From Yuukianura sp. NJ FZ-2021 (lineage: Eukaryota), in the NCBI GenBank assembly GCA_046563655.1, contig CM102287.1:5828001-5892000 (forward strand): a stretch of DNA of 64,000 nt, read 5' to 3'. A program made the position numbers and the translations under genes. Shown here piece after piece: positions 12,707 to 52,900 of this stretch; the first letter of the stretch is position 1; each line of letters begins with the position of its first letter. A model generated the notes under the pieces. That model ran no database searches and had not been told where the DNA came from. It worked only from the letters and a program-made list of their open reading frames with translations.

Positions 12707-13206
12707 ACGAAATTTAAAAAGTAAAACAAAAAAACATAAAAAAAACATAAAAAAAAACAAAAAAACCAAAAAAAAAAACAAAAAACAAAAAAACAAAAAA
12801 AAAACAAGAAAAAACAAAAAAAAAAACAAGAAAAAACAAAAAAAAAGAAAAAAAACAAAACAAAAAACAAAACAAAAAAAAACAAAAGAAAACAAAAAAA
12901 AACAATAAAAACACAAAAACGGTGTGTATAGCTTCCCGCGCCGAAGGCGCGGTGTTAGGTTTGGTTAAAGTGCGCAATACAGATTACATCCCGGGGCATT
13001 TTTTGTTTTTTTTTGTTTTTTTTAATTTTTTTTAGTTTTTTTTTTTGTTTTTTTTTGTTTTTTTTTTTGTTTTTTTTTTGTTTTTTTTTGTTTTTTTTGT
13101 TTTTCTTTGTTTTTCTTTGTTTTTTTTTGTTTTTTTTTTGTTTTTTTGTTTTTTTGTTTTTTTTTGTTTTTTTTGTTTTTTCCTTGTTTTTTTTTGTTTT
13201 TTTTTA
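12707..13206. repeat. Inverted pair of low-complexity tracts: A-rich (AnC)n at 12707-12919 and T-rich (TnG)n at 12999-13206, around an 80-bp core
   Basis: Read directly. The core contains the hairpin CCGCGCC-GAA-GGCGCGG (12936-12952). Confidence 0.9.
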
Positions 13207-13213
13207 CTGTTTA

Positions 13214-13678
13214 CTAACTCTTGTGAATTTTTTTCAGGTGCTTCCCAAGGTTGTCAGGCCATCTACCGTCAAACGTGGCGACACATTTGGGGCATTTGAG
13301 CCGCTCCAAGGGCGGGTCATGTTGTGCCCTGACATGGGCATACTTTTTTTTGTAGGTTGGGAACTCCAACCTACAATGCGGGCAAGGGAAAACCTTTGCC
13401 TTGGCAGTGGTGGTGGCATTTGGCGCCGGGACAACGGGGGGACTGGGAGGAGGGACTTCCTCCTCTTCGCCCACGGCGAAATACCCGGCTTCCACCGTCA
13501 CCCACTTCCCCACTTCCTTCTCTTCCCCCCCTTCGCCACATTGCGGGCACAGGAAATTTAGGGGTGGGGTGTGGGCGACGATGCAGAGAGGGTGAGCGAG
13601 GTGGCCTTCGCAACCCTCCCGTTTCAGCCGGGCAATCGCTCCAGCAATAGGTTGGAGACAACCAGCGCAGCTCGGCAT
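13214..13678 (-). CDS. Transposon-borne RING-H2 plus two C2H2 zinc finger protein, 154 aa
   Basis: CAGC-x15-CEGHLAHPLC-x11-CPQC fits C3H2C3 RING-H2 spacing. An acidic/Pro linker follows, then FPCPHCRLEFPTYKKKYAHVRAQH and LKCPKCVATFDGRWPDNLGKHLKKIH (C2H2). ATG at 13678. Confidence 0.85.
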   Translation of the reverse strand: MPSCAGCLQPIAGAIARLKREGCEGHLAHPLCIVAHTPPLNFLCPQCGEGGEEKEVGKWVTVEAGYFAVGEEEEVPPPSPPVVPAPNATTTAKAKVFPCPHCRLEFPTYKKKYAHVRAQHDPPLERLKCPKCVATFDGRWPDNLGKHLKKIHKS

Positions 13679-13780
13679 TTTTTTTTGGGGGCCTACCAAG
13701 AAAACGGTCTTTTCCTTTCTCTAATAGAAAGGTAAGTCACCGAAACTGAGCTCCGCGGCTCCTTATATAGGGAATTTTTT

Positions 13781-14097
13781 GGGGATGGGATATGGGATGG
13801 GATATGGGATGGGATATGGGATGGGATATGGGATGGGATATGGGATGGGATATGGGATGGGATATGGGATGGGATATGGGATGGGATATGGGATGGGATA
13901 TGGGATGGGATATGGGATGGGATATGGGATGGGATATGGGATGGGATATGGGATGGGATATGGGATGGGATATGGGATGGGATATGGGATGGGATATGGG
14001 ATGGGATATGGGATGGGATATGGGATGGGATATGGGATGGGATATGGGATGGGATATGGGATGGGATATGGGATATGGGGTGGGATATGGGATATCC
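13781..14097 (-). repeat. Tandem array (GGGATGGGATAT)n in the right TIR, about 24 units
   Basis: Read directly. Inverted counterpart of 11325-11580. Confidence 0.95.
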
Positions 14098-14250
14098 CAC
14101 ATCCCCCTCCTACTCCCCTATAGCAAAATGAAACGGCAACATCGCGGCGCAAAGCATTGAACGGGATACGGGATGGGATATGGAGTATTAACACGTACCA
14201 CCTCTGCCTTACTCCACCCTATGATTCTTTTCAAGCTGTTTGCCAACAAG

Positions 14251-18596: not shown

Positions 18597-21500
18597 CTAT
18601 GGAAGATTCCTGGAGGTCGAGGGTCGTTGTACTTCTCTATTCGGTTGGACGGTGGTGGTCATCATGTCAGTCTTTTCAGTAGTGCTTGATTGAATAAGGA
18701 GCGGAATAGAACTGATACTAGGTGCATTTGTCAACGTTAGTTTTTTCTTGGGGCCGTGACCATTGAGCCGTTCTGACATTTTGTCCAAACGCTGTTCATT
18801 TTCTTCTGTTCTGGAACTAGATACCTTGTCAATAAGTCTAGAAAAAAGACAAGAGAAGACTAGAAATTCAGTTCGTTCTAAAAATGTTACTTTTCGTCCT
18901 TGGATTTCTGGATATAATTACAGCACGCGTTCTAATTTCGTAATTTTTGGTTTTTACCAAATCGATTAATTAAAGTTCTGACTAGAGATGGCATATTGAT
19001 AGGCTTTTAGTTAGCATGAAATTTGGAAATTTCCTAAGTAATTTTTAATTTTGTTGAAACATGTCACCCTAAGTTGAAATGGCTTGTTCAAGAAATGTCA
19101 TTTTTAGTTCGGAAAGTTAGATAGTGACCAAAGAAACAAAAGCGTCATCATGAGTCGTCATCATAATTTATTTGAAAATTCACATTATGGTAAAAAGCCT
19201 TACTAATGTAACGTTATAACCTAACCTAAAAGAGGCACAGTGAAAGCCAAAGCTAGTCAAAGAATCGATTCCAGAAAAAAGAACCTTCGTCAATATTAAA
19301 TGAACTTTTGGTGGACTGGAGAGCTGGACGTAACTTTCTCCACTTTCACCTCCCTTGTCCCTTGCTGCCTCTTTTTACTATTTGCTCTCTCTTACTCAAA
19401 TTTGGCAAAGCCAGAAACCAAGAAACTAACATAACCCGACACCCATGGACGGTCAGTTACATCCATGGACGGAAGGACGGAACGGCATGGACGGACATGT
19501 CCAAAGTCATATTTCCTAACCACGCTGGACATAAGGCTTTTAGGTGACTATTCATCAAAGTATAGTCGGTGGATGCTGGATTAGCTACGGTTAGGTTATT
19601 TCCGTCCAGGACCGTCCTTGGTCATGTTAGGAATGGAAAGTACGAAACTGGAGAAAGCAAGTGAAAGCGACCAGAGTGTTGTAAGAAATGGAAACACAAC
19701 AAATAAGAGCATGGAGAACACAGGGGAAAATGCCATTGGACATGTGAGAAATAAATCCAACAGCTCTTGAGTTCCTACTTTTGACCAATGACCAACAACT
19801 GAGAATGGACTTTTGAATAAGGTCATGACTTTCCCTCTGTGAACAAAATTTTAGGTTAACAAAATCTACACTTTATGACCTCATTTTCAAAAGTTTATCC
19901 TTGAAATGCCACCGCGGGCTTACAGTGTTCCGCTTTCACTCATTAAATTTTTTCTCCTGACTTTATCCAAAAGTGAAACTGAAATTCAAATTATACAGAG
20001 CAAAAAGCTGCAAAAAAGGAACCGCCCCTCTCTATCACACAATTAACCACGCGAGGATATGTAAAAAGTGACGCCCATTCTTGCTTTCCTGGAAGCCTAG
20101 CCTAGTCTTTGTCGCTAGAAATTTTTTTGTAACATGTTCGTTAAAATTTTTTCCGAATTTCTAGGAAATGAGAAAGTTCCATTGGGAAATGCATGTGAAG
20201 CTTAAGTATTTTGTTGGGTTAAGAGGCTTACCTAATAGAATCATCCGTGGTAGGATTTTCCGTGAGTCGTCTGCGTGTGTCCGATTGATTCTCCATGTCG
20301 TCAACTTCTGAATCCCCAGAGGTTGGTCCATTTCCACGGATTTTGATCTTTGTAAGAAGCAGAAGAAGGAAGAATAGGAGGATGACAGAAGCCATGGAAA
20401 TGCCTCCAAAGAGTCCCAGACTCATCATTTCCTCACTTCGGTCATAAAATGGAACGGCCACTCCAAAGTCTTCATTAAAAAAGGAATCACTATAGAAACA
20501 CGGAAAGAGGCTTCCGATCTCCGAAAATCGGTCGTAGAAGTCAGAGCAGTTGACCTCGGGCGGATACCCGCATCCGTTAGGATTTATCATTAACGTGGCC
20601 GTCAGGTCTAAAGAAAGTCAAACAAGAAGTTAAAAGTTCACTAAAAAGAAAGTTGAAACTTTGTGGAGTCGAAAGATCTTGTTACGTTAGGATTGTTATG
20701 TTGCAAATGCTTATGTTTCGGACTCACTTTGGCTTGTAGAATTATTGTAGTGGTAGGAATTATTGGTAGAGTTGGCTCCAGCGAGCGGAAAGAATGCTGC
20801 CAAGGTTTCATCAGGATCCCAGTTTTCAATTTCATGGTTATAGTAACGTTGGACAAAAGTAAAGTTGAGGTCACCTGACTCAAAGTAGGTCACAAATATA
20901 AATGTACAGCCGTAGAGGTCTGCAGTACATCCTTCGCGGCAGGATGGGATCTCGCAGTTTCCAGGTCCCGTGGCGTTTTTTGTTCGTGACGTTCTAAAAC
21001 ATAAGGAATTACATAGGAACAAAGTACATCACAATAAAAACAAGCTGTTTGAACACTCTTGGTGTTTGAACAAACAAAACAAGAAAGTTCCTGGCAGGCA
21101 GATGACGCCACTCAAAGTTTTTGTCATAAATGTCATACCAAAAATACTTTGTCAACGTACAGTTGTGAGAAAGCAGCGAGCATCATGAAATTACTGAAAA
21201 TTTTGTGAAGCATTTCCAAAAAACTTTCTCACCTGCAAATCCCAGGGTCAGTTCTAAATTGAGCATTTAAACCAACAAGTATTGGATCCACAATTAACAG
21301 AGAAATAAATAACAGACAGGATCCCGCCAAGATCAAAAGCGTCGCAACGCAAACTATGGCGAACGATTTCGCCCTTTCTGACCAACTCCGCTTGTCAGCA
21401 ACCGAATTTTGACGCTCGAGGAGCTCCTGTTTCCGTTTCTTGGCTGCCAAAAGTTTTTGAGCTGCGACAACCGTTGAAGCACGTCGTAATTGATGGGGTG

Positions 21501-25185: not shown

Positions 25186-28100
25186 TTACTTGGGTCTCCA
25201 GGAGAGATCGCCCATTCCGTGGAAGCTTTTCTTCATGGAGGAATTGTCCGCCCACTTGGAGTTTAAGCACTCATCATCATCTTCCGCCTCCGCCAGTCTC
25301 TGTTCAAAATAGAAAAAATACAATTTTAGAATTTTGAAACAATTCAACTTGCAGTTTGGAAGCGTTTGAATGACAAGCCAAGCTCCAAGCCAGTAGTTAG
25401 CGGTCAGCTCACACACAAAACAGCAAAGCGACAAGCACATTTTCATTCTCAAATACGCTAAAATTACAATAGTATCCTAGGATAGCAGGTAGGATAACTT
25501 AGGATAATAAGTTAACTATCCTAGGATAAGCGAACCACTTCTATGAATAAAACATAAATAAATCACTCTGTACTTCAACATCGTACGGTCATATTTCTCT
25601 TCTCAAACATCACTCTTCTCATGAAGCATTGCGGCTTCAGTGCAGCGCTGCAAATTTCAGCGTAACAAATACCTAGTATTTACAAATTCAAAAACATTCT
25701 AGCGTTCGGAAAAAGTACGATTGTATAAAAAGTTCAAAAGAGGAGATAAGTTTTGAAAAGTTAGTTTAGTAATTACAGTAGCAGATACTCCATTTTCAGG
25801 CCTTTAGCACGAGAAACTTATAAACTTAGGAAAGCATCGAAGCGTTTCGTTAGTTCAGAGTTTGTTTTTGTTTTGCTTTTTCTTTTAAAAATAGGTGGTT
25901 CAAGCGATTCCGTTTTAGATACACCAAAAATAAATCCAAAAGTTTCATGTTTCACAACATGCAAGCAGCATCTCACACCAGACAAAAGGGGTCAAATCTT
26001 AACCTTTGAACTTCCTATATGAAATGCTTGTCCAATTCAAGAACCCATATTGCCCCACCCTGGGTTTCAAATTAAGCGGTGGTGGTGATCGTTTAACACG
26101 AAAACAGCGGTGGTGATCCCTTAAACATTTAAACCACAGCGCAATAGACGGTATATAAGTGGTGGTGACATAATTTGTGAAGTGGTGGAGCAGCGGCGGC
26201 AGTGAGAAACGCAACGGGACACAAAACCTACCATGATTATTAGCCACATTGGAGGAGGTCTCACTGTCCTCCTCTCTTACTTGCGCAATAGGCCTAAACA
26301 TAACCAAAAAATCAAATTAACCCAACCCGCAGGTCATTTCCGTAGGTCAATTTGAAAAATAACTCAAAATTTTGCGGTGTTAAAACATAAAGTGTCGTAG
26401 GTTAGTTACTTTCTTTGTGGAATTTCAATTGTTGGGAAGGAACTAATCCTCGCAGGTAAATCGGTTTCAATTGGTTCCAGAAATCTCTCCCCTGTCAAAT
26501 CACAGGGGTGGGACAGGGACGTCTCTTCATTTACACAACGCACATCCACCACCAGGCTTCTAGTTTTTACAAAAACAAAAACAAGTCAGTTACGTTTTGG
26601 AAGGAATACCACAAAGCACCACTAAAACTCAGAAAACTCAGAAATCTAAAAAAAAACATTAGAAATGAGAGCACATTGACAAAAAATTCTAAATATCCCG
26701 CATCCGGTCATGACCCCCTACCTAGCAAGACAAAACACTTTTTAGCACAAAGGCAGGAGGAGAAGATGCAGAAAGCTTAACTTGGAAACATGTTTGTTAG
26801 GTTAATGCCTTGCCAAGGTTAGGTTAATGTTAGGATATCGCTGGTTAGGATAACGTAGGACTGCTAGAAGCTAGTGAAGGGCGTGGTGATTACCAGTGCG
26901 AGGGAGTGACTTGGTTTTGGTCCCAGGACTTCCCTCAGCCGCGACTCTATCGAGTCAAAGCGAAAAGGAAGAAGGCTCTGCTGGAGGCGAACGTTTTTTT
27001 TTAAGTTTTGCTCCGTTTGAACAAGAAGTGGGTTTTCAGTTTTCACATTATTGAGTCACAAGCGCCTGAATCTCTAGTAAATCATCCTTCACTTAAATTT
27101 TCTTGGGCCCCTAAAAATCCGTCTCATCGAAGCCCCCGAGCAGAGTTGGCTCCCCCCTAAAAATAGACATGAAAACACTCTCATCTTCACACAAAATACA
27201 AAAGAGAAAGCAGAGTGTAGGGGTTTATGGGGATTTCAACCACTTTTCCCTCAACGATCAACTTATTCAACAAAGGCTTTCTCAGAAATGATTCTCAAAA
27301 AATAACAAAATGCACGTCATGGCTTAAGTAAACAAGAAACTTCAAAAAGACCACAAAAAGGTTTCGTAAAATGTTTCAAATTGCTGGTTTTTCAAAACTG
27401 TACTAAATTTCTCAAAGAAAGTAAGATTTTGTAATAAAAGCTTCGCTTCAGTTCATTCTCTCTCGTTAGCTAAAGTTGTGACATATCCAAACGGTATGAA
27501 ATTTCACACCGCGAAAAGTAACATAAAACGGGAAACCAAAATCGTATCAAATCCGCAACCAAAATCCCCCCACAACGCAATCGAGTTTCTTTTCTCTTTC
27601 AGCGAGAAAGTTCAGTTTCTTTGAAAGAAAATGAAACATGACACTCCACGTTTCTTTGATCCTAATTAATCTAAATCTCCGGAAATACGAAAATCTCCTT
27701 TGACAGGAATCCGGGAGAACTCAAAACCAAAGTTTCCGATATCCAAACAAATATCAAAAGATTAGTGTTTACTCAAGAGAGAAAGTAACACCACGGGAAG
27801 CCACAACCACTACTAAAAGTTGTGGAAAAATCCGACAAACGAAAACGAAAATGGAACACACTGGGAACAAATGGAGTGAAAGTGAACCGAGCTCTTGAAA
27901 ATTCTGAGAACACTTTCTTTTAAAGTGTGTTTGGATTTTAACTTTTTCTGAAACAGTTTAATTAAGAATAGTTAATTACTCGTGTTCATTTCTCAAGAAA
28001 TAATGAAAATTCATGTAATTACATGTAATTCATGTAAATACATAATGTAATTGAGTTGTTGTTGAGTTACCCTTTATTCTTGACAGGAGGGTTATTAGTT

Positions 28101-31100
28101 GGTCCATTCCGCTCGCGCTCGGGGGCTGTGCTGTTCCTGATCCGATTGTCTTCTGCTGAGTTTCTGCTGATGATAGGCGTAAGATCGTTCATCTCTAGAT
28201 TATTCGGTGGATGGGGCCTGGAATTGGGGAGTAGTTTTTCCGTAAGGGCGTTGAGCGTCCGAGAGGAGGACTTCCGCAGTGCTCTGGCTTTTTCATCCAG
28301 CGTTGAGAGCGAAGTCTGCGGTGGTTCTGGAGACGGACTCGGTCCGTTGTTATTTGTCGTCGACGGAACGGGGACTTGGCGGGAGCTACTGGCAGTTGAG
28401 CTTGTATTGTAAATCTTGAAGTAAGCAAATACGAGATAGATGACAGAGACGATGAAACATGGAATTGGGATGGCCAAGGACAAGGCGAGTTCCAGAATCA
28501 CGTTGTTCATGTTAAAGGAAGTCACGACCAGCTTTGGTTTGACTTTGGAGTAATAACAATCAAACGTCTTGCCCTGCTGAGAATATTTCGCGACAAAGAT
28601 GGAGCAGTTCAGTGACGGCGGATATCCGCAACCTTTAACATTGGGATAGAGGTGGGCATCCGGAAACCAACCTTCACTGTGTACGCCTGGTGACACTGTT
28701 GAGCTAGTTCCGCGTACAGCCTCTGCACTGCTTTTGTGACGACTCTTTTTATGTCCATTAAAAGGCTCACTCACTCCACCATGATTGTAGTTGTAGTAGG
28801 TGGGATTGCTGTTTGGAGAAGTGTGATGCTTCGGCTTGAGGCTGAGTTGTGTCGGAAGTGGAGGCGGAGGTGAGTCAGACGGCGTGGCGATTTTGTAGCT
28901 AACAAATATCTGAGTGCAGTTGTAGATATCCTTGGTGCACCCTACAACAGTACAAGTCACAATTAGGATCAAATCACCTCCTTAGTATTAAAAGTTACTA
29001 TTAGATGCATTACCCTCTCTGCAGGAAGTCCAACTTTTCGTGCACACAGGCCCAGTGAGGTACTCAACGCGGTCTGTCCGGCAAAGCGCCGGTTCTGGGT
29101 CAAACTCATTAAAGATGGTAGTGAAGGCCGGGTCAATAACAAAAGGCACGAGGAAGAGGAATGAGAAGAGGCTGAAGACGGCGAGGAGGATGAAGAAGGC
29201 CGTCGTGTAGAAGAGACACTTTTCACGCAGTGTCGGCGGGATGATCGGTGGTGGATCCGGTGGCTTAGGCTCCTCCTCCAACGTCTCTTCAACTCCGCCC
29301 AGCGCTCCACCGTCACCCTTATCACCCGACGGGGAGTCACCAAAGGCGGCACTGCCGTAGTTACACTCAACCTCTTCCAGCTCAATCGTCTCATTGTCCA
29401 CCCCCGCAAACTGAAGCTCCAGCTCAAGTTTTGACCCGCCTGAGTCGGAAGAGCTCGGCGTCTCCGCCTCCTCAATCTCGGCATGGTGCGAGGAGCTGAG
29501 TGCCGACGACGGTGGTGGGATTTTAGGAAGACCGAACGCCCCACTGCTTCCGCTACTTGCGGTCAGCAGCCCAGGGCCACTTGCGTCGTAATTGTTGGTC
29601 CGTGGAGTTTCTTTGCCTGACGGAGTTGCGGTGAGGAGTAGAGCTGTTGATCCCAGTCTCTCCTCCTCCTCACCCGGCATTATTCGCTCAGAGCGACGTC
29701 TGGGGGAGCATTCCTTGGCGGGGGTCTCCGCAAGACTCTCGCCCCACCCCCAAAGGACCCCCTGCACCTAGTCCAAGTCCCATCACACGACCCCACCACC
29801 TAAGCCACTTCACATTGCGAGCCACTAGAGGGGTTCAAAGGTCACACTTTCACTGAGCCACACAAGGCCTTGGAGTCGGGGGTGGCCGGGATTCCATGGG
29901 AATAACAAACACTTTCACTCCACCATTCGCACAGTTCTGGAACCTTGTGGGGCACAGGGGAGTTGGAATTGGATAAAGGAGAACCGCACCCACTGCTGTA
30001 ACCCACTCGTTGTCTCTGCTTCCTGCGAAAAGGGCTCCTCTGTCCCTTAAACTACCCCATGACTAGCCCTTGAACACTCAAAAGTGGAACCACGACATGA
30101 CCTGGTCGGGACAAAGGGCACGGAAACTTCGCCATTTTGGGATTGCAGTGAGTGAGTGAAGGTAGAAACTCAGAGTGCGGTGGTATGGAGCAGGATGCAC
30201 CACTTCTTCGATTCAAGCATGTATGGCCTAGCACTACTTTCACTACTATAACTCCACTAGCACTAGTCTATAACCTCTCCTTTCTCCATAGGCTTTTAGC
30301 CTTAGACTTTCTCCACGCTACACTTTTAGTCGGTCTGCTTTCACTACGGAAAAGGCTCCGTTCGGGTTCCCTCTCCGGCCTAGGTTAGGTTAGTACTACT
30401 ACTATGACGAAAACTAAACTTTCCTTGGACTTTCTCTGCCTCTTAGACCCATCTCCATCCACTTTAGTCAACTACGGCAGTAAGCACCAGGCTTTCCAAG
30501 GCTTCTCATAGCCCGTGGACAAACCCAGTACCCATTGATCCGACTGTGACTCACGACAACCCCCGACCGTCTTTTCCGACGTTCGGTCCAGCACAATTCC
30601 ACCGCCCACCCTCCGCCGCTGATCCACATTCCTCCAATTTCTCCAACACAAGCCTTCAAGGCCTCTCTGCCAAAAGTTAGGTTTGGCGCTTGAAGGAATC
30701 GCTGGATTCTGCTGAATCCAAAGGCACAAAACCTCTAGGCCCAAAAGCCACTTTCTTCTCCAAAAGCAAGCACCTAACCGAACTTTTAAAAAGTCCGAAT
30801 TCCTATATTGCCATTTCCCACTCCTCCTGAATGGGGCTCTTAATTTATTCACCTCTCTCTCTCACTTCCTCCCAGACACACACACCCACAATTACACGCA
30901 ACACTCCAGTCTGCATTGCGGAAGAGAGCCTAAGACTTTCACTCTGACTGACCTCAATGTCCTTCTTTCTCCAACCTAATCTAAACTTAACGCTTTTGAT
31001 TTCTAACTTAACCAAAAGAGAAACTTGACCCCCGCGTTCAATCATAATCGCGTATCAAACAATCACTTAATTCCTCCCCTCTACTCCAATCACATTTTAC

Positions 31101-34100
31101 CTCTTCATCAAATAGTCAAGCGGCTCTACATTATTAACTTTCTCTCACACGGAACAATAAATGATTTCATCCTTTTCAATTTTACTAAAAGCCAAAAATA
31201 AACACTCCAAAATCCAGCGGTGCTTTCGAATCCTCCATGTCAAACACCTAACCCTGAAAACTTGACGTTTTCATCAGTAAACAGATCTCAATCGCCTTAA
31301 CGTCAATCAGCACCTAACAACTTAATACCGGGCATCTCCTATCACCATTCAGATTGCACCGAACCGAAAACCATAATCCGAGCTAACTAAAACCCTAATC
31401 CAACCTAAGCTATAGTTTCTGAGTTTGATGAATTGCAAAACCCACAAAAACCAAACATAACTGACAAAAACACAACCAGTTTTTTAAAACAACGCAATTT
31501 CTAAAAGGACAAAAAAATTGGAGTAAACTCAATTGAATTTCCAATTTCACTTTGGATTCAAAAAGTTCAACGCCCAAACATATCCAGTTTCGAAAGAAAA
31601 ACTGGCAGTAAACCCAATTTGAATTTGATTTTGAATTTTAAAAGCCCAAAAACTTAAATTTCAAGCACAACTCGTGGGGTTGCTAGGAACATATTGAAAA
31701 ATTAAGAACTTTAGGATAAAATTTGCAATAGGGAGATCGGGAATATCTGATTCTGACTCTGACTCTGATTCTGACACAGTATTTTCTCACAGTACATGAT
31801 TCTGAGCAGTAGAGTTCGGGATTTGACTTTACTTTGATTCTGAGATTTTGAGATCATCTGGAATTGTGGCGGGAAACCTATCCTGTGGAATTTGAAATTG
31901 AGGTGAAAATTTAGCAAGGGCAAAGGGCCCCTCAGATTGATCAAAACCATAAATTTTAGGCGCTTGGGCATTAATTGTCATTATAATATTTAACTATGTC
32001 AGTTTCTACGCGAGAATTACTGGAATTAGCTTTACTCACAAAAAAGGACATATTTTTTCTCCTTGCGATTGAACAATTAGAAGCGAAAAGATAACACAGC
32101 TCCAAAATTCAATTTTGACACATACGAGGCGCCATATTTTATGAAAAAACACAAATGAGTTATAGGTAAGTAAATAGATTTCATGAGAAAAAAACGGATG
32201 GATTATATACCATTTTGGTATATATTGCAAATATACCACAAATGGTATATTTCTAAATATAACATAAATGGTATATTATTAAAGATTTTATGGAGAAAAA
32301 AACGAATGAATTGAACGCAAACAAATATGACGATTTGCTCAAAAACAGGTGATTTGTTCAGGGGCGCCCCTGCGGCTGAAAGCGTGGCTTCCGTTCCAGG
32401 CGCTTTTGCATCTCGTCAGCACTGGGGGGATGGTTCAAGTCCTGAATCCTTTTGGCAAGTCTGTGGAGAGCAGGATTGCTTGGACGGGTACAATCGGCAC
32501 GGTGGTGGTTATGCCGTCCGTAGTTCCAGCATCCGTCGTCAAAAAAGTAGAAAGAAAACGCCAATTGTACTTCGTCACGATCCAGTGATACATGGAGTTT
32601 GTCTTCAAAAACTTGACGCGGGGCGCCCCGCATCTTCATCACGGGATTGTAGTAACCAGCCCCTTCGTACATTTCGAATGTTGTTTTTCCCGGTATCTAA
32701 AAAAAAGTCATATTGAAACAGACAAGATTAGGCTTACGATTAAAAATATTTCTTAAGTTCATCAAAATGATTTAAATTTTTAAGTTAAATACATATACCC
32801 ATCACGTGACACTGCATTCCGCAATTGCGAGTAGTGTGAGAGTTAGATTCACAGAGATAGCAAGTGGCATCATTGAATTTCCGAAGCATGTGGAGCCTGC
32901 TTCCCCCGGCACCGGGTTCATCTGCTGTTCTCAGCAACTTCTGATTTTCGGTAAGTTGTTCGTCCAACTGTAATTGGAGTTCCTCCACCTTTTGTTTCAG
33001 ATCATCCGTTTCCTTCTGTCGCATCAGCTCGTCATCTGTGTCCTGGAATGCTGGATAGATTTGGAAAACCTGAGTAGGATTCACAGGATCTCTGCATGAT
33101 GGACACCTGAAATGAGCAACGACACAACCGGAGATTAGAAAATTGTTTAAATGAAAATAAATACTAAAGTGTAAAACTAATTAAAATTATCAATGTATAA
33201 GTAAAAACATATTGGGAAACTTACGGAAATGCGCCTGGTGGGGCAATTTGCTGCCAATTGCTCAAGCACTGCTCGTGGTACATATGACCGCACTGCGTAG
33301 TCACGTGGGCGCCCACGAATCCGCTAATTCCCGGAGATGAGGCCAGATTTTCCAAGCAGATGTTGCAAATTGTAATTTTCGAATCCATTTCGGGTTATAA
33401 CCAATTTTTAAAGTTAAATTGATGTTTAAATTGATGCTAAATTGTAAGAACACAGCAACAAATGACAAAACTATTCAATCCAGAGAGGGTGTTTATATGA
33501 TTCTATTTTTTAACTTTTAAACTTAAAGTTTTCCCTCCACCCAAAAGTCTCACATTTCCCAAGTTGAGACTCAATTCTCAGCGTAGAATCAGAAATAGAG
33601 AAGGGAATGAAAATTTGATCCATTTACTCTCACTTCTGATTCTGAGCTGAGCTCAGAGTCAGAGTCAGAGTATTTTGTCTCAGAATCAGGTATTCCCGAT
33701 CTCCCTAATGTTAATCCGAAGTAAACCCAAACTCAAAAGTGGTGAAATAGCCGCATATTTTGACTAGCTCCTTGCAGCATCATGTCCGTAAGTTTTGTTT
33801 AATCTTTCCAAAATTTAGTATTGACTTAACCTCCATTAACTTTCAATTATCCCATCTGGAGGGAAAGTTTGGAATCATAAAAAAGACATAAATAAAACGC
33901 CATGAAATTGGCAAGAAGCGAGAGAGGCATAATGGCACAGGAACTTCGCGGCTGGAACAAGACAACGCGCATTTTTCCTTGTATCCCATTCCAAACTTTT
34001 TTCTTTCCGTTTAGGAGAAAGTAGTCGCCCTTTGTGAAGAATGTTAGAATCGAGGTCGTTCTGGTGGGTCGAGGCAGCTAGTACTAGCAGTGTAGTGCTG

Positions 34101-37100
34101 GTGGGAGTGGTTGGGATTATCCATGACACAAAACTTTGTAACTACCTACTTGAGAAGGTGTTTCAGAAGTAGAGGATCATAGAACTACAGCAGTAGTACA
34201 CAAGAGTCTAAACGTAACTTTGTATGAGGTTCCACTTTCACCGCTTTCACTTTCTCTAAACCCAAAAACAGTGCCAACTTGAAGGCTCCAACTCCATCTG
34301 CCAACTTTCCCAGGAAAATCGTAGTTTAGAACATAGGGGATCCAGAAACCAGGGGAACCTAGTCAGTAGGAGACTTTCCCTTTCACTGGGGCAGTCGATC
34401 AATTCACTGTCTTGCCTTAGTCTCCAAGTCCCTCTGACCCCAGTGAAGTGACCCCGAAGTGCCCCCGGGCGGTTCAAACAGAGGTCACGACCTGCTTTAT
34501 GCACAGTACGACTGACTAACACGGACTCGCTTTCGGTTTCGTCCACGGCTCAACCAGGTAAGCTTCCCAGTTAACCTTATTCTAAAACTTACTATCCTAC
34601 TTACACTATTTTTCAAAAACATTTCACTCTCAAAACAAAACCAAAATATTTTTGACGTAACATGACATTTGGTAGCATGTAGAAGTAGATCATCGTTTTT
34701 AAATAAAAGTAGTCAGCGACATCCACAATTTTTGTTTTTTTGAAACCATTTCCAAAAATACAAAGAGACAAAGAGTAGGATAGCACAAAAATTTCGCAAT
34801 TCACTCGGCGAGTCATCCGAATTAACCCGAACTCAAAGAGAAAGTGGTTCGACTCAAGAATTTCTCCGGAACTTTCCCATTGATCTCACTTCCCTCGGCA
34901 GAAATCATACCAAAAAACAAACTCCGGCGACGTCCGCATTTGGCAAGCCCTATCCGCATCATCACTATCATCCTTCATAGTACTACTAAATAGTTTACCT
35001 AAAGTTCCAATTCCAAAAGAACCATTAAACGCCATTACACAGAGATACAATCAGTCATTATGTTCCTCCAATCCAACTTTTTTTTGTAACTCTCGTATTG
35101 AAACCTAACATAAAACGAACGTCTAAAAAGTTTGCAACGTAGTGAATTTTGTTAAGGTGAAGGGAGTGTTGGGGTTTTTCAGCGCAGCATAACTTTCTCT
35201 TCTCTGCTGAAAACTAGTGAAAGTGGGCTTTGCTTCTGCGTCTCTCCAAGTGACCTCCATTCCAAGAACTAAAAATCGATTCCTTTGCAGAAAGTGACAA
35301 GACTGCAAAAATAGCACATACTCTCAACACTCCCATCCCCATCGCAGTACTTCTACAAACTCAAATTGAAATTTTTCCAAAGTATAACAGGTCATGTGAC
35401 CACTTCAGTGAAAACGTACAGTTGGGAACTCCAAGAAACAAAGTTAACACAAAATTAGGCCAACTTTTCACAGAATTTACCTTGAAATTTCACCATGAAC
35501 ACGCCTTTTGAGAAAAGAATTTGCTTCACAGTATGTATCTGTCAGATGACAGCAGTACTAAGCTGCGTCTCAATCGTCTACCTCACCGTAGCTATATACA
35601 AACCGGCCTACTTAACTCTCACTTCCGGATTTCTAGAAGAGCCAGTCATGTGCACTACCATTGCCATGGAGACGGACAAAGACTGTGACACCCCCCGTGG
35701 TCCTGGAGATCCAATCAAATGGAAAGGCTGGAACTCATGTTCCGAATGGTGCTTGTCCAAGTCCATTAGCACTTGCCCTAGAATCATGGTTGACGTAAGG
35801 TACAACGGCACGGGAATTCGACTCGAAGGATGCGAAGCAATTGACAAGAAGGTTTGTTCTGGAATTGACCATGAAAAGCCACCACTCCAATGTGTCGGCG
35901 GAGGATGCAGCGGGATTCATGGACTCTTCAATTGTACAACTCCGGTTAGAACGCCTGGTACATCGTCAGATCAAAGTTTCGGCGCCAAATGTATCGACCT
36001 AACGACCATTCTGGAGTGCAATATAACCGATGCCGCGGAACCGGTTAGCTGTGCAACGAAAACTGGCTGCCTCAACCTTAATGGAACCTACACATGTAAC
36101 ATCGGGCAATGTTCTAAACTCATAACACCTTATCATTGTCAACATAAGTGCGATGGAATCCAAACTGGCAACAAAACGGTAATTATTCGAGAAGGAGACA
36201 AGATATTCTCAGCCCAATGTCAGCGCATAGTCAACCGGAGCAGTGAAGAAGAAATGTGGCCATTGAATCACAAAACGATGGATCCACAACTACATGTCGA
36301 AGTACCACCAACCCTACTCATATTCTGCACCAACCTGTTCGTGTCACCAAAGGACAATACAAGCTACATAGGGTACGACTGCTTCAACGGTACCTTACTC
36401 GAACCTAACCATTTTGGCAACAGTACAGAAATTGTCAAACTGACGCAAACGCATATTGATTTGGTTGATCTCGGAACGAGTCGAGACGGGATAGGTTTGG
36501 TTGGTCCAACAGAAGAAGGTTTGCTGATCTGGAACAATACTCGGCTGTTCATCAACTACGAAAGCTGTGTCAACACGCTCATCCTCAACGAATGTGACAA
36601 GTTTTACGCTGAATATGGAAAAGATGGATCCGATTACGGAAGTCGAGCAAGGTATCAATGCTTCTACTCTCCAGATGACAATGACTTTGCATCTCTCCGA
36701 TTCAGTAGAATGAGAACCATGATGGAACTGCTGTTGGCAACGACTATTCCAATTGGCTTAGCCATTGTATCCTGTTTCACACTTGTCATCTGCTCCAGAA
36801 TTATACACGTTGGCGACGACTCACACTTTTACTTCCAGTGTTGCGGAGATGACACCAAGAAAATCCTGGAGAAAGATCACGTCGAAGCCATGGCACTTTG
36901 AACCCACTTTCACCAAATCCTATTTAGCAAATATTTTCTACATCTTCAGTATCAATTACTTGGATTTTAAAACATTTTAGGCCCCTTTTGCTATCTCCAG
37001 ATAGACAATGACCCTGAAACTGAAACACCCATACTAGTTATAAATTTCTAAATTCAAAATTCACCCGCCATTTTTAAATTTTCAATTCATAGTCACACTA

Positions 37101-40100
37101 AAAGATGGTGGGAGCCCTTGGAGTAGTTGCAAACGCCGTTGGAACGAGTCGCAACCGACGTGATAGTAGAAACTCTCAAAATGAGGAGCCACCAACACGT
37201 CGTCCCACAATTTCAGAAATACTGGCCTCAAGACATGTACTGGCCGTGGGGGGAGGCGGCACTGGGAACAACTACCGGGACCGTGGCGGAACCGTGGATC
37301 CGCTCCTCCTCTCCCGTCAACCTTCAGAACCAGAGAAACTGACATTTAAGGAACAAGTCAAGTCATACGTTTCTCTGGCCCTGGGGATTCTAGCCAGTCT
37401 CTGCGTATTCGCTCTTTTGTTCCTCATTCCGCTAGTTGTAGAGCCTTCCATTTCAACGCTTCTAGCCGACTTTGATCCAGAACCAGCCACTTGCGTAGCT
37501 ATTAAATCCGAACTCCAAGTTGGACTCACAAGATGCGGCACTTTCAGCTCCTGTCGTGAAGGATGCACTACCACACCCTCACAGTGCTACCAAATTCGTG
37601 TCTCTTATAGAAAACCAAATACACTTCCGCCTACTAAACCCAATATAACATTACCTACCTCGGAATTGGGGGTAAGACTATGATTAATTCCTATTTTTAG
37701 TCAACCAAAGCACAAATTAAGTGGTTTAAATCAATTAATCGATTTTTACCAGGATGAATCACGATGGGATGAGTACGATACTGAACTTCTCATTAACGTC
37801 AAAGGATGTGGATACCCTCCACGCGTCAAGTGTGAAGAATTCGGAGTTGCCTTTGGGCAGGTAAGAAAGCATTACTTAAAAATGTGCTGCCAGCATAACT
37901 TAACCAAATCCTAACGTTTTCTGGAAAACGTTTAGCTAACGTTTGTACTTTTACAGGAAGGACGAACATTTAGTTGTTACTACAGTCGATCCAATCCTCG
38001 CCTGGTAGTGACAGACTACAACTGGGAAGAGACGGCCTTTCCCCTCCTACTGGCCCTTGGCCTCCCCACCATTCTATTCTCAATTTCCGTTGCCATTCTA
38101 TCTTCATGGTACTGTCCTAGTTGCGAAGAGAGAGGCAAAAACAAGCGTCCCTGCAGAAGTAGATACTCTGTTCCAAGACCAAAGCCCTCTGACCTCGTCG
38201 ATGACCCCGCTCAGCGCAGACGCAACAACAACCAGCCACAGAGGAACAAACCTACACCAGCAGAACCCATTCCAATTCACCCTCCAGAACCCGTGGCTCA
38301 TCAACCCCTACGAAGGAAACACTCCATCTACAATCCCAATTCACCGTCACTAGCCACAATTTCATCCGGAGACACGACTGTTTCCAGCATCAACTCCCTA
38401 GACGGGTAAGACTTTTTGGAAATTCAAATCCGAAATATGGTGACTGATTTTTGCCGCCCGATAGAACTTCGCACTTGAAGTTATTCTGATCTTGTCATGT
38501 GAATAGGAAATTTCCTAGTTGAATTCACAAAACAAAATTCAGTTCCCAAAAATTAGAAAATCTGGAAACTCAAACTAACTTTTTGTGACATTTCAGATGG
38601 CAGAGTCCGCCGTCTCCACCACCGCGATTCGACTCCAGAATGAATGCCTCGTCAAAGTCCAACCTGTCAACTCGGACACGCAAACTGTAACATGGACGTT
38701 ATGAGGTCATGAAAACAATAATTAAACCAATAAGCACAATTTATAGGGCAAGCAGCAACGAATTACGCAGAATTCACGTTCTTCCCCGTCGTTTCCTTTT
38801 TATGGAGATGAGCGTCACGCTCTCAAAACTTAAATTCTCAAAACTCTGTCCTTTAAAAAAACAAAATTTTAAAAACGTAACATCTCTGATATGCTGAATG
38901 AGTTTGATCTTAATTAATTGTGATATACTCATACTGGAAGGAAGAGAGTGTTTTGCTTTGTAAATAGATAGCAGCTACAACTAAAACGAGGCAACAACAG
39001 CCCAACCTATCATCATCACTCTTAGTTAATTACAATAACAATTTACCTGATGTTAAAAACCTTACTTTCACTTTACCTATTTAGAGAGAAACTTAATGAG
39101 TATCATTCTCAATGTCTACTGGCTTGGGCAGATGTGAATGAGCATAAAACGCAGCAAAAGCAAGCACACCAAATTATTGACTTAACTAATGTTGACAGTT
39201 TATGAAATTAATTAATGGAAAAATAAAAATGGGTTCACTACTTACCTTGGCTTCCTCTTGTTTTTGATGAGCAAAGAGCATGAGGGTTCGTTGATCTTCT
39301 TTGGAAAGGGCTGGTTCCCGTGCTGGAGCTCCGCTGCCTCTGGTCTGGATTTTGACAATTACTTTAGACTTTTCGTTTGATCCGATAAAATCTTTCAGTA
39401 GTTTTCCACGATGGAGCTCTTTCCCGCAAAACCAAAGTTCACCAGATCCAGGGGGAATGACCTACAAAATGGTTTGAAATTAACGTTTACGTTTGAACAC
39501 ATTCCAGACTTAAACTTGACAGCATACCGCAAGAGAATCCTGAGTTCCTGTCAAGTCTTCCTTATTTTCCAGTTCAAGACGAATAGGATCATGAGGAGGA
39601 AGATTCATCGGATACACGATCGTACATGCGCCGCGAAGAACGTTCATTTCCTCTTGAACCATCTTCAGTGTTAGACAAACGTTCTTGTCAACCAAATTCT
39701 GTTCAAAAATTTAAAAAAAATAGTATATAGTAATAAGTAAATAGAATTATTTTGGAATTTTATACGACTGCGTTACTAACGCAGTGCGTTAGTATCGTTG
39801 AAGTGAACTGACCTTAGATATTTCTCCCTTCACTTCTGAAATAGTGCGCGTAAGCATATCTCTCATCTTTTCGTTCGGTTGTCTTCCATTTCTACGGCCA
39901 ATGGGATCCCGGTTCATCGTGAATCCGCCGCTTGGAATGCAATTTTCGCCATGGGTGTCTACAAGTTTAAGTTCCTCTACTTGTTCATCAGTGAGACCCA
40001 ACATTTCGGGAGGAAGGAATGTTCCATATTTAGCCAATTCTTCCATTTCTGTTATCCAAACACACAAATTACATACATGTCAAATGAGTTTTAAATATTA

Positions 40101-43798: not shown

Positions 43799-46333
43799 AT
43801 GCCGAGAAATGCGTTTATTCTGTACGTCGAACGACGACGAAGAGACTGCGAAACGAACACTGGGCAAAAGTTGTCGTTGGAAGAAGCAGTTAAACAATTC
43901 GGACCAGAATGGGCGGTATGAAACGTCAATGATATAAGATTAAGATATAAGATTATATCAATGATGTAAGATTTTTAGTACCTGAAGGAACTAGTGAAAG
44001 TACTTCTGTTTCACCGTGATGGTTTGATGTTGACAGGAAATGCGAGCGGAGCAACGGCAACCGTTTCAACGACAAGCTGCAAAGAATTCTGATTCTCCTA
44101 AGCCTCAACCGTCAGTTTCTCATGTTGTGACATCAAATCGATATTCCATTGTCGCCAGTAATCCAGCCACATTCGAAAACAGACCAACAGTTAAGGACTT
44201 GTCATCATTTATTGGAGAATCCGCCAAAACAGTTCAAGAAAAGTTCGAGAACTTTTTAGACCAAAATCCTCCACAAAGTTTGTAAGCTCAGCCTTGATTG
44301 TATTCATTTAATTGAACATTTTATCAAAACATGTTGAATATTTCTAGGCCAAATCCAATGCTTGGAGAAGATGACGACTACTTCCGAACGAGAAATTGGC
44401 ATAGATTTCAGATTCACCGCCTTTGTGATCCTACTTATGGAGAGCCCACACAACACCGTTTCGTTCTGATTGAAGCAAGTATCTACGGAAATAGTACCAA
44501 TGGTGTGACGTACATTCCAGCAGAAATTGCAATGGCAGTGTATTCGTTCGAGGAAGGACTCGTTGATAACTTCTGTGCTTTTGTTGATCCAGGTAAGGAG
44601 AAACATATTGACCTCTTTTATCTTTGGAAGCATAAAGTTACACATAGACTTCTGTATTTGCAGGGCATCCACCTCTGGGAACAGCTAATGTTTTCAAAGA
44701 CAATCGCCTGAAATATGGTCTTCCTGTTCCGCCATTTAACCTTGACTGTGCACATTATGCAGAGATTTGGGATGAGTTGGAAGAGTTTGTAAACTCTGTA
44801 AGTTCAGAACTGACAAAAAAGCTAATCTGTTCCATTCTTCATGTTAAAATTGAGTTTGAAGTTTGCCTAATTACCATTTTTAATCAACTTTCAGTATCCC
44901 ACGTATGGAACGGACTCCACATACCTATTTTGTCGCGAGTACGAAACTAAAAAAATTCGCGGTGTGCTGACATGGCTTGCTAGGAAAGCTGGTAACTTTT
45001 AGCAAAAATTCAAATCACTAAAATAATTACCAATCATTTGCAATTTCGTTGTAATTTTGCAACTCTTTTTTTTATCTTTTACTTCAGATAAAAAAGTTCC
45101 TTGGGATCTCCTACCTTATGGACAGTTCATGTACCAAATGTCAAAATTTGCTCAACACGAATACTTCAACTGGCTCAAGCGACAGCGAATTTTTGAGCAA
45201 ATCAGCCAGAATGATGCACCGTCAATCAGAAGTCGTCGAAGCCTGAGCCGAAGTGGATTTTCAAGCTGTGTCGAATCGGATACTGAGGGAAGCTCATCTC
45301 TGCATTATCCAAAATCATGTGACTCAACCACAGCCATTAGGTCTCCGACGCCTGCTGACTCAATTTTCTGGAGCGACAGCGAAGATGGCGGGAGTGATGA
45401 CGAAGATATGGCAAGCAATGTGTCTTCTGCAATGGGATTGAGTACATGCAGTATGCGTAGCAACATCAGCCTTTGTTCATGGACTGCCAAGGAATCTACA
45501 ATTACCGCACCAGATATCGACTGGTACAACGAGACACGAAACCAACCTGATTCTTGGACAGAACTTGGCGACTTTATTCCGAGATGGAGTACTGGCGGCA
45601 TAACGGCTTTCGTCGAACGCTTCCGTCAACTCTGCCCTTATGCAGAAACTCACACTGACGTTGATTCTACGTTTTCGATGCCCCCAGGTTCCAACAAGCC
45701 TACAGAAACCGATACTCCGCAAACTCTAACCGAAAATGGGTCGAATTTTCAAGAGTGGGATCTCTTTACCTTTGAGATGCAAGCTGACAGATTCTTTGAT
45801 TCGCTAGATTTGGCTTCCAATCCGGAACTGGGATGCCCACATCACATGATGGTATATCACTCACAGAAGAATTTAATTAGTAATTATAAAATAATTAACA
45901 ACTACGTCATTTTCTTTAACAGAATAACGACGATATGGCTCTGTTTCTCTGTCCGCTGAGCATCGTCAACCGAAATATTTTCAATACCTTGGACGTTCTC
46001 CTGGAACTATTTCACATTCGACCGGAAGAGGGGCGACATTATCCCTTCAGCGACGAGATGGCTGAACGTCACAAACGTCGTCGTCAGGTTCAGTACTACT
46101 GTACATGTAGTTTCCAGTATCTTCCAGGATTTAAACCTTCAGCATACATGACTCAAGCCGAATATGACCGAACAATGGAAATGACGAGTGGGGCTGGAAA
46201 CAGTCGTTACAGCAGTCGCTGTTCGTCCGCTATGGCAACTTGTAGCCTCTCTGACTACGAATCAGACGACACTGCTGTTACGCCTAACACTAATGTTACT
46301 GCTACTGTTGAGAGCGAACCACAAACACCATAA
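43799..46333 (+). CDS. mael: Maelstrom-like piRNA pathway protein (HMG box + MAEL domain), multi-exon
   Basis: N-terminal HMG box MPRNAFILYV...FGPEWA|EMRAEQRQPF. MAEL motifs YIPAEIAMAVYSFEEG, FVDPG|HPPLG, GCPHH and LCPLSIVNR. Confidence 0.8.
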
Positions 46334-49929: not shown

Positions 49930-52900
49930 TCAGCCAAATGCTGCTGGCATCGAAGTGTTCTTCTGTTGGACACTCGCTGAAAACTCCCCCAGACTCTTGA
50001 GGAATTGAAAGCTCTGTGACAGGTACTTGTTGAACAGGTACTTCTCTTCCACTGCATTGCAAGTCACATACAGACTCCAATTGCATCGAAGCACCTAGGG
50101 AGTCAAAGGTCAAAGGTCAGAATAAGTTACAGTCACGAGGTCATAGGTCAACTCACCTCTTGGTCAAAAACTGTTCCCTGAGGACATCTGAACGTCTTCG
50201 TCAAGAATCCAGCCTCAGTTTTTGCACACAAATGAAATACCTGTTGAACAAAATTGCACAAGATGCAAAAAGTTGAAAAGATAACTTTTGAAAGGGTAAA
50301 TAGAAAACGTTGGTTAAAAATTGGCAATTTGTGAAAGGCGTTAAAGTTTGAAGTGAAAGTTAAATTTGAACTTCAGTTCATGGCATGTCATGATTAAAAA
50401 ATGACATTTATCAATCACAAAAATTTCAATTTCTCTTGCAATCGAGTCATCATTTCTCATAATGTTTTCACTTTAACATAATTCTGATTTGCGAATTAAA
50501 TTATTTGAAATGAAAAAATTCAATGCAAAAAGTACCTAATACAGTTAGGAAAACGTGCTTTATCAATAAATTCCTTTGCAGTGTGTCAATATCTCTACTT
50601 TCCCAATCGTGTTCTTAATTCACGCAGGTAAAAAGGGAGTAATTTGTATTATAGTATTTATGTTATTGTTAATTTTTAGTATTTTATTAATGAAAAACGT
50701 TTGTTTGGATTACCTTGCATGAATTAGTTGGATCACCGTAAAGCCCGGGAAAAAATTCTTGTCGTTCACACTGGAAACTTGTAAGCACGTCCTTCCCGCC
50801 CTCAAATGGAAGGACTTTCTCTCCCGGGTAGTATGATTTCGGTGCGTTCCGAACTTTTACGAACCTCAAACCTTCCGTTTTCGGCTTCTGGTAAATTTTC
50901 AAAAAAAAAAAGTTTTGAATTTTTTCAATTTTTAAAAAGAAAGCATGAAATGACAAAAATGCAGTCTTTACCGCCTGTACTTGCTCTGCCAATCCTAGGA
51001 GAGGTGAAAGGTCAACTTCAATTTGGTCTGGAACTAAGCTTTCTTCTTGTTCCGGAGCCGTTTGTTGTGGCAAATTGATTTGTGGCGCCGGTTGGACATT
51101 TTCAATTCGCTTGAGCGCAATGGCCTTCAGCGCTTGCAGCGTCGGTCCATTGAAATTCAGAATGCTGCCCAACGGCCTTGGAGTTGTTGGGGGTGGCGTT
51201 GGACTTTGAAGATGCTGGAACACTGGTATAGATGGATCTACATGGGAAATACGATGGCCCAGGACATTCGGTCCGGGTGGAATGTGGCTCAGAATGTGAC
51301 GGAAGTTGTCAATAAGTTGAGCAGTGGCTGGAGATGGAGTTGGTGGGGCCGGTGGCGGGATTTGCTCCACCTTCTCCTGCATCTTATTCAACTGAATCAG
51401 TTTTTTGAGCGTATCCATCTGAGCTGAAGTGACGTTTCTCTCTTGTAACTTTTGAATTATTCCCATTTGGGTTAGAGTGTCCAAAAGTGGATTTGGAACG
51501 GAATTGGTTGTTGGTGGGGCTGGTGGAGTCGGAGGTGGAGCCACCTTGGAAGAAATTGCATGTCTCAACATATCTTGAAATTTGGAGGAGTCATTTGGTG
51601 GTGGAGCACGGACTTGGTCATTGGTTGATGCTAGCAGTGCTAGATCTTCCATACTCAGCCCCAGAACGTCCGTGACTTTTTGAATTCCAGGAAGATTTTG
51701 AAGTTCTTTTCTTTTTTGTTCTTCGTCTGGTTTGAAATTGAAGTAGTCTATTTGAACATTGTCGTTTTCATAAGTCGGAACTTTAAGTTTCTTGACGTAG
51801 TTCACCAACGGTACGAATTTGGGCGGGATTTCGTCAAATACGATTCGAGTTGCAACAGTAGTGGTCGTAGTTGTCGTTGGTCTTGGCGTCGTTGTCGTTT
51901 TAGCGGTTGTAGTAGTCGTTGGAATGGTTGGTCGGAACTGATCGGGAATTTCCGGAACGACCTTGACAATTCCGGCCACATCACCCCCATATTTCTCGTT
52001 GACAACTGAATGCAAAACGTGCGTTTTAGCTTTAGTCAGCGTCTGTAATGCTTTCATGATCATTTCTCTTTCATCCGGAGGTTTCGTTGTCACTGGCTTC
52101 GGCGTTGTAGTTGTAGAAGTCGTGGTGGTTGTGGAAGTTGTTGTAGGTGGATGTGTGATTGGGACTATTTGGGGTGGTGGAGCCGGAGGTGGAGTCATAT
52201 TCATTTGAATAACTCGAATTTGAGGTTGATTCGGTGGGCCCATGGGGAAATGGTGGCCAGGACCCACGGGTGGGCCCATTCCAGAATGATGCGGCGGGGG
52301 TGGGCCTTGATGTGGGTGGAAATGGATCCCAGAATCAGGGGGTGGAGGCCTGCCGGGTATCATGTGACGTATTGGCTTGGGGAATCCGAAAGGCTGGTTT
52401 GGTGGGGCCGGATGTGGGTGGATCAAATGCCTTGGCGGATGCTGTGGTGGATATGGAATAGGACCGTGCAATTGCGGAGCATTGTTTGGTGGAGGTGGCG
52501 GTGGAGGTGGTGGGTGATGGCGGGCCCACGGCGGTGGCTGGTCTGGCATTGGTGGCTGCGGTGGCATAGGAGACTGTCTTTGTTGAAATTGACCTTGAGC
52601 CGTAGGAGGTGGTGGTGGGGGGACAGTTAAATTTGGGGGCGGTGTTGGAACTGTAAAGGGTCCTTGTAAGTTAACTTCTATTTTTTCTGATTGAATCGGG
52701 AGTGGTGGTGGAGCTGGCGTGGGTTCGGTGTGAAGTGGATGAAGATTCCAGTCTGTTTGGATGTTGATGCCACCAGGAGGCTGCCCAGGAACAAATTCGT
52801 TCAAGTGGCTTGTGGCAAAATCTGGAGGTGGGGGTGGTGGTCCTAAGTGTTGACTTGGAAAATATTCATTTCCTTTGAGCTGTGATTGGTCCGATGGAGG

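Follow-up and report, generated by a model that had tools for sequence, protein, structure and literature searches.

Within a 64,000-nucleotide stretch of DNA from Yuukianura sp. NJ FZ-2021 (contig CM102287.1, positions 5,828,001 to 5,892,000; this whole stretch is called the window, and its first letter is position 1), the segment 31730-33706 is bounded by terminal inverted repeats (TIRs) and holds a predicted gene for a RING-H2 protein. We conclude that this segment is very probably a recently active, non-autonomous cut-and-paste TIR transposon that carries a complete three-exon RING gene and amplifies it with each transposition. In the mechanism that we propose, a transposase made elsewhere in the genome would bind the TIRs and the subterminal TCTGAY repeats and move the element, which inserts at AAT and duplicates those 3 bp. 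The RING gene would be transcribed from its own TATA/initiator (Inr)-like promoter, and the whole gene would be copied at each transposition, with the element acting as an amplifier of it.

The element is bounded by inverted repeats and AAT

The element spans 1977 bp, is bounded by TIRs, and has AAT on either side. Its terminal 16-mer, AGGGAGATCGGGAATA, occurs as two exact copies in the 64-kb window, at 31730-31745 on the plus strand and at 33691-33706 on the minus strand. With up to three mismatches allowed, there are still two sites; shuffled sequences gave a mean of 0.25 sites, and two were reached in 1 of 100 shuffles. When the arms are aligned past the 16-mer, they match over 29 nt with one mismatch, then across a 9-nt indel over about 20 nt with one further mismatch, after which the similarity fades, for a total TIR length of about 50 nt. 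Both ends are rich in TCTGAY/GATTCTGA units, and 12 of the window's 33 matches to a TCTGAY-type motif on either strand lie inside 31700-33740; these subterminal repeats are likely transposase-binding sites. The boundary features, including the target-site duplication (TSD), are as follows.

31727-31729, no strand: TSD AAT, left copy, read directly; a contig of an empty site joins 31726 to 33707, with 3 letters that fit either side
31730-31775, plus strand: left TIR, comprising the exact 16-mer and an imperfect extension with TCTGAY hexamer repeats, on the 3′ side of the gene
33652-33706, minus strand: right TIR
33707-33709, no strand: TSD AAT, right copy, read directly and from the empty-site contig

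The element has moved as one piece

We placed contigs of three public DNA runs on 30500-35000, one run (X1) being from organism A and the other two (X2 and X3) from one sample of organism B. The flanks in these runs differ from the window by about 1-6%. The joint, loose-end, indel and contig figures for the three runs are among the matches listed, and summed contig depth is not a copy number.

Alleles in which the site is empty were found. In X1, a 1450-nt contig at flank-level depth (7.18) spans 31173-31581 and 33751-34589 with 193 letters between them, where 189 would be expected had the element and one AAT been missing. A 261-nt contig of X2 runs from 31726 straight to 33707 and thus skips 1980 positions, which is the 1977 of the element plus 3; because three letters at the joint fit both sides, we read this as an empty site that keeps a single AAT. 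A second, diverged empty allele is seen in both X2 and X3, where 31729 is joined to 33720 by 12 letters representing a variant form of the right flank.

The interior of the element is present in the same runs. A 1500-nt contig of X1 shows no difference from 31822-33321 and has a depth of 23.5, versus 3.8-7.18 for the flank contigs, and X2 contains a 743-nt window-identical contig at a depth of 452, versus about 162-228 for the flanks. In two of the three runs, then, window-identical interior contigs stand at 2-5 times the depth of the flanks. Contigs from other insertion sites were also among those listed. At the left end, two contigs in X1 and one in X3 match the window from 31727 inward and are joined to unrelated flanks, and at the right end, two X1 contigs match up to 33711 and 33712 before they run into unrelated flanks. 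At these other sites, AAT again adjoins the TIR. Internally deleted copies were listed as well, with joints 32250-32891, 32261-32953 and 32270-32831 in X2 and X3 and 31919-32357 in X1. The first three of these have independent breakpoints (32250, 32261 and 32270) inside an AT-rich 26-nt tandem/palindromic repeat at 32202-32279 in the 3′ region.

From these runs we conclude that the element is a young, recently active, insertionally polymorphic family of TIR transposon that moved as one piece. A preliminary description of this DNA had asked whether the two ends might be independent insertions, or whether the RING gene might be syntenic without TIRs in relatives. The empty site with a single AAT, the copies that related genomes carry elsewhere with different flanks and the deletion derivatives contradict both: the two ends are those of a single insertion, and the RING gene is no syntenic host gene.

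The element holds a predicted three-exon gene

The preliminary description had reported that the TIRs at 31730-33706 enclose a spliced gene, and this is borne out by the exact inverted 16-mer, the AAT TSD and the in-frame GT..AG joins. With splice sites predicted from the sequence, the minus-strand gene has three exons, and the spliced join is 804 nt long, in frame, and comprises 267 codons and a stop. The putative TATA/Inr core promoter lies about 105 nt upstream of the ATG, and the gene's own TATAAA motif noted earlier is indeed present there on the minus strand. The predicted features, all on the minus strand, are listed from promoter to 3′ end.

33460-33497, minus strand: putative core promoter, with TATAAA at 33497-33492 and Inr-like TCATTT at 33465-33460, by motif match only
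33225-33388, minus strand: exon 1, with the ATG at 33388 and RING-H2 ligands 1-6
33107-33224, minus strand: predicted intron 1, GTAAGT..CAG, phase 2, GT at 33224 and AG at 33107, separating RING ligands 6 and 7
32806-33106, minus strand: exon 2, coding for RING ligands 7 and 8 (CPSC), then a long helical or coiled-coil-like stretch, and a canonical C-x2-C-x4-H-x4-C knuckle
32697-32805, minus strand: predicted intron 2, GT..AG, phase 0, GT at 32805 and AG at 32697
32358-32696, minus strand: exon 3, 112 codons and a stop (TGA at 32360-32358), with a conserved four-helix domain around a CCHC knuckle that is degenerate in the window copy
31776-32357, minus strand: non-coding 3′ region of the element and gene

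The G+C content is 0.48-0.51 on the exons, versus 0.26-0.37 on the introns and untranslated parts (0.34-0.35 on intron 2). An alternative intron-2 donor at 32798 gives a truncated product, and the donor at 32805 was preferred because from it the frame runs on into the conserved frame of exon 3.

Seven other open reading frames (ORFs) of 49-133 aa lie within the element; none resembles a transposase or has a Pfam match better than E=0.24, and the non-genic space is too small for a transposase. The element is therefore non-autonomous, and the absence of a transposase, also remarked on in the preliminary description, stands.

The predicted protein combines a RING-H2 domain, a long helix and knuckles

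Exon 1 matches the Pfam RING models, with E values from 2e-7 to 1e-5 (zf-C3HC4, 2.3e-7; zf-RING_UBOX, 4.8e-7; zf-RING_2, 9.4e-7). In the spliced product, the spacing is C-x2-C-x21-C-x-H-x2-H-x2-C-x14-C-x2-C, with all eight ligands in the C3H2C3 order of a RING-H2 domain. Ligands 7 and 8 (CPSC) stand at the start of exon 2, so that the full C3H2C3 set exists only in the spliced product. The RING-H2 assignment made earlier is thus upheld by both the Pfam matches and the ligands. Among six matches to solved structures, the nearest RINGs by sequence are 6f98, RNF4 and HRD1, and TRAIP is not among the six.

A single-sequence AF2 model of exon 2 has a 41-residue helix at residues 21-61 (mean pLDDT, the predicted local distance difference test, of 66; about 92 in mid-helix), in keeping with the coiled coil that had been proposed. 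Read by eye, exon 2 ends in a C-x2-C-x4-H-x4-C knuckle, for which Pfam gave no zf-CCHC match at E<=1. The best ESM Atlas scores were 0.81 for exon 2, to RING clusters of arthropods and giant viruses, and 0.84 for exon 3, both below the level that we count as more than a lead.

Judged from its domains, the 267-aa product is likely an E3-ligase-like protein, possibly dimeric through the helix and able to bind nucleic acid through the knuckles. Like the RING-coiled-coil E3 ligases TRAIP/nopo, it has an N-terminal RING-H2 directly before a long helix; unlike them, it also has CCHC knuckles and, at the C-terminus, a conserved domain without a Pfam family. The label "TRAIP-like" is thus one of architectural resemblance, as we found no sequence-level tie to TRAIP.

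Exon 3 belongs to an unannotated protein family

We searched the 112 aa of exon 3 against 1.84 billion cluster representatives and found 14 proteins at E<=1e-3, six of them at E<=1e-10. Thirteen were retrieved, and 11 were kept as the set of relatives; P0007 and P0015 were dropped as repetitive and of low complexity, and P0013 (2814 aa, E 2.5e-4) was left out. The 11 relatives are 96-150 aa long and 26-49% identical to the window copy, and they share the core ..Q.AF.FYFFDD.CWNC.SPFHHR..C......H..NHP... The contigs of all 11, 0.7-3.9 kb long, are unnamed entries of ENA, JGI or Logan, and the proteins are called "hypothetical protein" at most; the 90% cluster of one of these proteins comprises three sequences on 2, 5 and 2 contigs. 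Several of the relatives' ORFs start within a few residues of the position aligned with the exon-3 acceptor of the window, which would fit a conserved intron.

The knuckle of exon 3 is a perfect CCHC in 11 of 11 relatives. The CCHC knuckles of the preliminary description hold in part, since the exon-2 knuckle is canonical by inspection and the one in exon 3 of the window copy is degenerate, with Tyr for the second Cys. The zf-CCHC model was matched by 1 of the 12 alignment members (E 0.14), and no Pfam family was found for exon 3 or its relatives. A profile of the family matches the HIV nucleocapsid knuckles weakly (E about 0.03).

An AF2 model of exon 3 made with the alignment has a mean pLDDT of 82.4, above 90 over residues of about 30-100, and is built as helix-helix-knuckle-helix-helix. 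Foldseek gave no fold match for this model, the best hit (E 0.98) being to the Lin28 knuckle only, and with VIA-align the best Z was 3.4 and none of 48161 chains reached Z>=5. A collection of 5.8 billion proteins yielded no annotated homologue of at least 175 aa for exon 2 or of at least 197 aa for exon 3, in a search that was word-limited and weak. With the 12-sequence exon-3 alignment as query, no protein of 264-2000 aa was found, lengths of 197-263 aa being outside the range. In viral contigs, the alignment pattern had 76 matches, with no relative among them. From the sequence comparisons, exon 3 is assigned to an unannotated eukaryotic protein family.

One candidate from the closer exon-3 alignment, a single locus (L133) in a Proteobacteria metagenome-assembled genome of 59% GC, has a QLAFGFYFFDD-like word only, with no knuckle after it, and was judged a chance match. 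Separately, a run labelled as soil metagenome (X6) contains a 175-nt contig at depth 5 that is identical to 32441-32615, part of exon 3; this is presumably insect DNA in the soil sample.

Evidence that weighs against an amplified, intact gene

Several observations count against the reading of the element as a recently active transposon that amplifies a complete RING gene. The first concern the runs. In X2 and X3, the contigs that mark the empty site precisely diverge from the window by about 6-10% and were placed at 88% likeness, and in X3 the window-identical contig (927 nt) stands at a depth of 49.9 versus about 92 for the flanks, so that extra intact copies are not evident there.

Others concern the gene. 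Its model, its expression and its splice junctions are all drawn from sequence alone. Downstream of the stop codon, the canonical AATAAA is absent, and only AATATA variants are found, at 32277, 32251 and 32226. Many copies have an extra C after 32688, with a depth of 8.19 of 31.7 in X1, 609 of 1186 in X2 and 223 of 273 in X3, and this insertion shifts the frame of exon 3 under either donor. Copies that are about 7% diverged also have deletions of 12 nt and 4 nt around 33426 and 33495, in the promoter region. With the frameshift and these deletions, a large share of the copies would be unable to encode the full protein, and because so many copies are defective in coding, the gene would appear not to be needed in cis for spread. 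The window copy itself, besides the Tyr in its exon-3 knuckle, differs from the family at three more near-invariant positions, and the knuckle module may be decaying in it.

Superfamily assignment

What we found of the hallmarks of a class II TIR transposon are the TIRs, the TSD with a single-copy empty site, and several insertion sites; a transposase was not found. A TSD of 3 bp would fit PIF/Harbinger, CACTA/CMC, Zator or Academ. PIF/Harbinger and Zator resemble the element in having a 3-bp TSD, an A/T-only target and TIRs of tens of nt. They differ in that the target there is TWA, whereas here the 3-bp duplication is AAT, and the comparison is made with no DDE transposase or Myb-like ORF on the side of the element. 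Repbase sorts non-autonomous elements by the length of the TSD and the first 11 terminal bases (PMC4455052).

A TA duplication as in Tc1/mariner, with a TIR that starts GGGAG, was ruled out, because what stands in the empty alleles is GCAAT and then the right flank, and not GCAATAAT. An exact scan for AGGGAGATCGGGAATA gave at least 121 loci in metagenome contigs and 11 loci in viral contigs, all chance matches, and BLASTN of 31600-33850 against those 132 loci returned nothing.

Origin of the RING gene

Two accounts of where the RING gene comes from are about equally likely, and each of them is possible without being probable. In one, which the preliminary description proposed, the gene was captured in the manner of Pack-type elements, so that it would be a recently captured host gene with a TIR-less parent elsewhere and a mere hitch-hiker without a role for the element. 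This would explain an element that lacks a transposase and yet has a complete intron-containing gene with its own promoter. The frameshift and deletions in many copies are what is expected of passive cargo that is dispensable for transposition, and because the gene is dispensable in many copies we lean to passive cargo on this point. Pack elements mostly hold fragments or chimeras, however, and not an intact gene with its promoter. Moreover, there is no second copy of the gene in the 64-kb window, and the word-limited, weak search of the 5.8-billion-protein collection gave no annotated full-length relative, where a conserved insect host gene would be expected. Movement of a whole gene by DNA transposons is documented in amphioxus, where a tesD copy is flanked by Zator-1 and has 3-bp TSDs (PMC12905397).

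In the other account, the RING/knuckle protein would belong to the element, as an accessory or anti-host factor of an old transposon-associated family, comparable to the E3 ligases that viruses carry, and the copy in the window would be a one-gene member that relies on a partner's transposase. Despite their diversity (26-49% identity), the relatives of exon 3 were all found as unnamed ORFs of about 100-150 aa, carried on short contigs from metagenomes or from Logan. Because this exon-3 family is old and diverse on unnamed contigs and no annotated full-length homologue was found, we lean to a repeat-associated family on that point. Other transposons carry zinc-finger accessory ORFs, and a Merlin-like neighbour in the window, described below, is an example. 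RING and CCHC domains occur together in the gag of the Osvaldo lineage of Gypsy, and a RING occurs in Pao (PMC3630058). On the other hand, the relatives, known as protein ORFs, may lack TIRs and even RING exons around them, and deleted and frameshifted copies seem to have spread too. Our literature search turned up no DNA transposon described with a RING/CCHC gene, and we know of no DNA-transposon superfamily described with a RING accessory protein.

A more specific and speculative version, which we consider unlikely, is that there exists a DNA-transposon family whose sole gene would be a RING-H2 E3-like accessory or counter-defence protein with zinc knuckles, used as DNA viruses use their own ligases, from a widespread eukaryotic family that would have gone unannotated owing to repeats, and that would be moved in trans by an AAT-targeting transposase. 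Two independent insertions of miniature inverted-repeat transposable elements (MITEs) on either side of an ordinary resident host gene would be a possibility beforehand, but we regard this as highly improbable, because all 1977 bp are missing from the empty alleles, which retain a single AAT, a genome with an empty orthologous site contains the window-identical interior, the other junctions begin exactly at the TIR ends, and only two copies of the TIR occur in the window, so that neither end is a complete MITE; a single insertion is what these results point to.

Comparison with known systems

A gene-carrying non-autonomous DNA transposon, as we take the element to be, is of a known kind. Such transposons are well documented in plants, mostly with gene fragments, and animal cases are mostly Helitrons or rare composites. 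The unusual points here are that the gene is a complete RING-E3-like one, that the host is an insect and that the target is AAT. The element resembles Pack-TYPE/Pack-MULE-like elements in that it is TIR-bounded, has no transposase, contains intron-containing genic DNA and has been amplified by transposition. In contrast to the fragments held by those elements, it would carry a whole gene with its own promoter, and it also differs in its insect host, in its 3-bp AAT TSD and in that no parent gene was seen. Pack-TYPE elements are documented in plants (PMC8903248).

The closest likeness in an animal is the Zator-1-flanked tesDwb unit of Branchiostoma belcheri, in which a complete gene was moved between loci with 3-bp TSDs, is insertionally polymorphic, and is flanked by Zator-1 with 33-bp TIRs (PMC12905397). 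That unit is described there as a composite of two whole Zator-1 elements with a TSD of TAA/TTA, whereas the present unit is one element, with a single TIR pair and AAT. In the gag proteins of Osvaldo-lineage Gypsy and of Pao (PMC3630058), a RING is likewise found in a mobile-element protein, and in Gypsy it is accompanied by a CCHC nucleocapsid domain; this is a likeness by description, and here the context of capsid, protease or reverse transcriptase is absent and the gene contains introns and lies in a TIR element.

Thus, a small, recently active insect TIR element appears to copy a whole gene, from promoter to stop, for a putative E3 ligase. A host origin of the gene would make the element a clean and datable case in which cut-and-paste transposition has duplicated a whole gene. 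Should the gene instead belong to the element, it would be, to our knowledge, the first RING-type accessory protein of a DNA transposon, and it would suggest that transposons, like viruses, may manipulate host ubiquitination. Under either origin, the C-terminal helix-knuckle-helix domain would represent an unannotated protein family, since it has neither a Pfam family nor a structural match.

Neighbourhood and a second TIR element

The preliminary description had placed the RING element upstream of tipE within an intron of CFAP298, and the domain positions agree with this. The CFAP298 domain is split over two minus-strand ORFs, at 39189-39461 (profile positions 2-66, E 1.8e-26) and at 25189-25476 (positions 65-95, E 2.6e-5), and TipE-family ORFs lie at 28070-29767 (minus strand), 35486-38406 (plus strand) and 20231-21028 (minus strand). 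From these positions, the RING element lies inside the approximately 14-kb CFAP298 intron, upstream of tipE. The TipE-family genes themselves form a cluster on both strands, inside or beside this intron (25476-39189).

The TIRs of a second element, at 11204-14215, are 263 nt long at 98% and partly made of 12-nt repeats. This element contains an open frame of 526 codons with a DDE_Tnp_IS1595 domain (E 2.2e-20), and because of this transposase frame it is apparently an autonomous Merlin-like transposon. The preliminary description had held that both TIR elements carry a RING-H2 fused to a zinc module, and had proposed that DNA transposons of this genome may repeatedly carry or amplify E3-ligase cargo in the style of Pack elements. 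The convergent minus-strand ORF of 168 aa in the second element does fit the bare RING-H2 Cys/His spacing by eye; it matches C2H2 models only, with no RING model up to E=5. The pairing is therefore not upheld, and the proposal of repeated cargo is left with one case and not two, as the second element encodes its own transposase. A long, K-rich, low-complexity inverted repeat lies within the Merlin-like element at 12716-13231.

Elsewhere in the window, a plus-strand ORF at 53867-54310 matches the C-terminal domain of cyanate lyase (E 4.4e-32) and the N-terminal domain of cyanase (E 5.1e-6), in an otherwise insect-like gene neighbourhood. It is flanked by minus-strand open frames of 824 codons (50690-53161) and 1112 codons (54574-57909), for which no Pfam family was found at E<=1e-4. 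About 11 kb from the RING transposon, at 44316-44708 on the plus strand, is the start of a domain of Maelstrom, of the piRNA pathway (E 2.7e-6).

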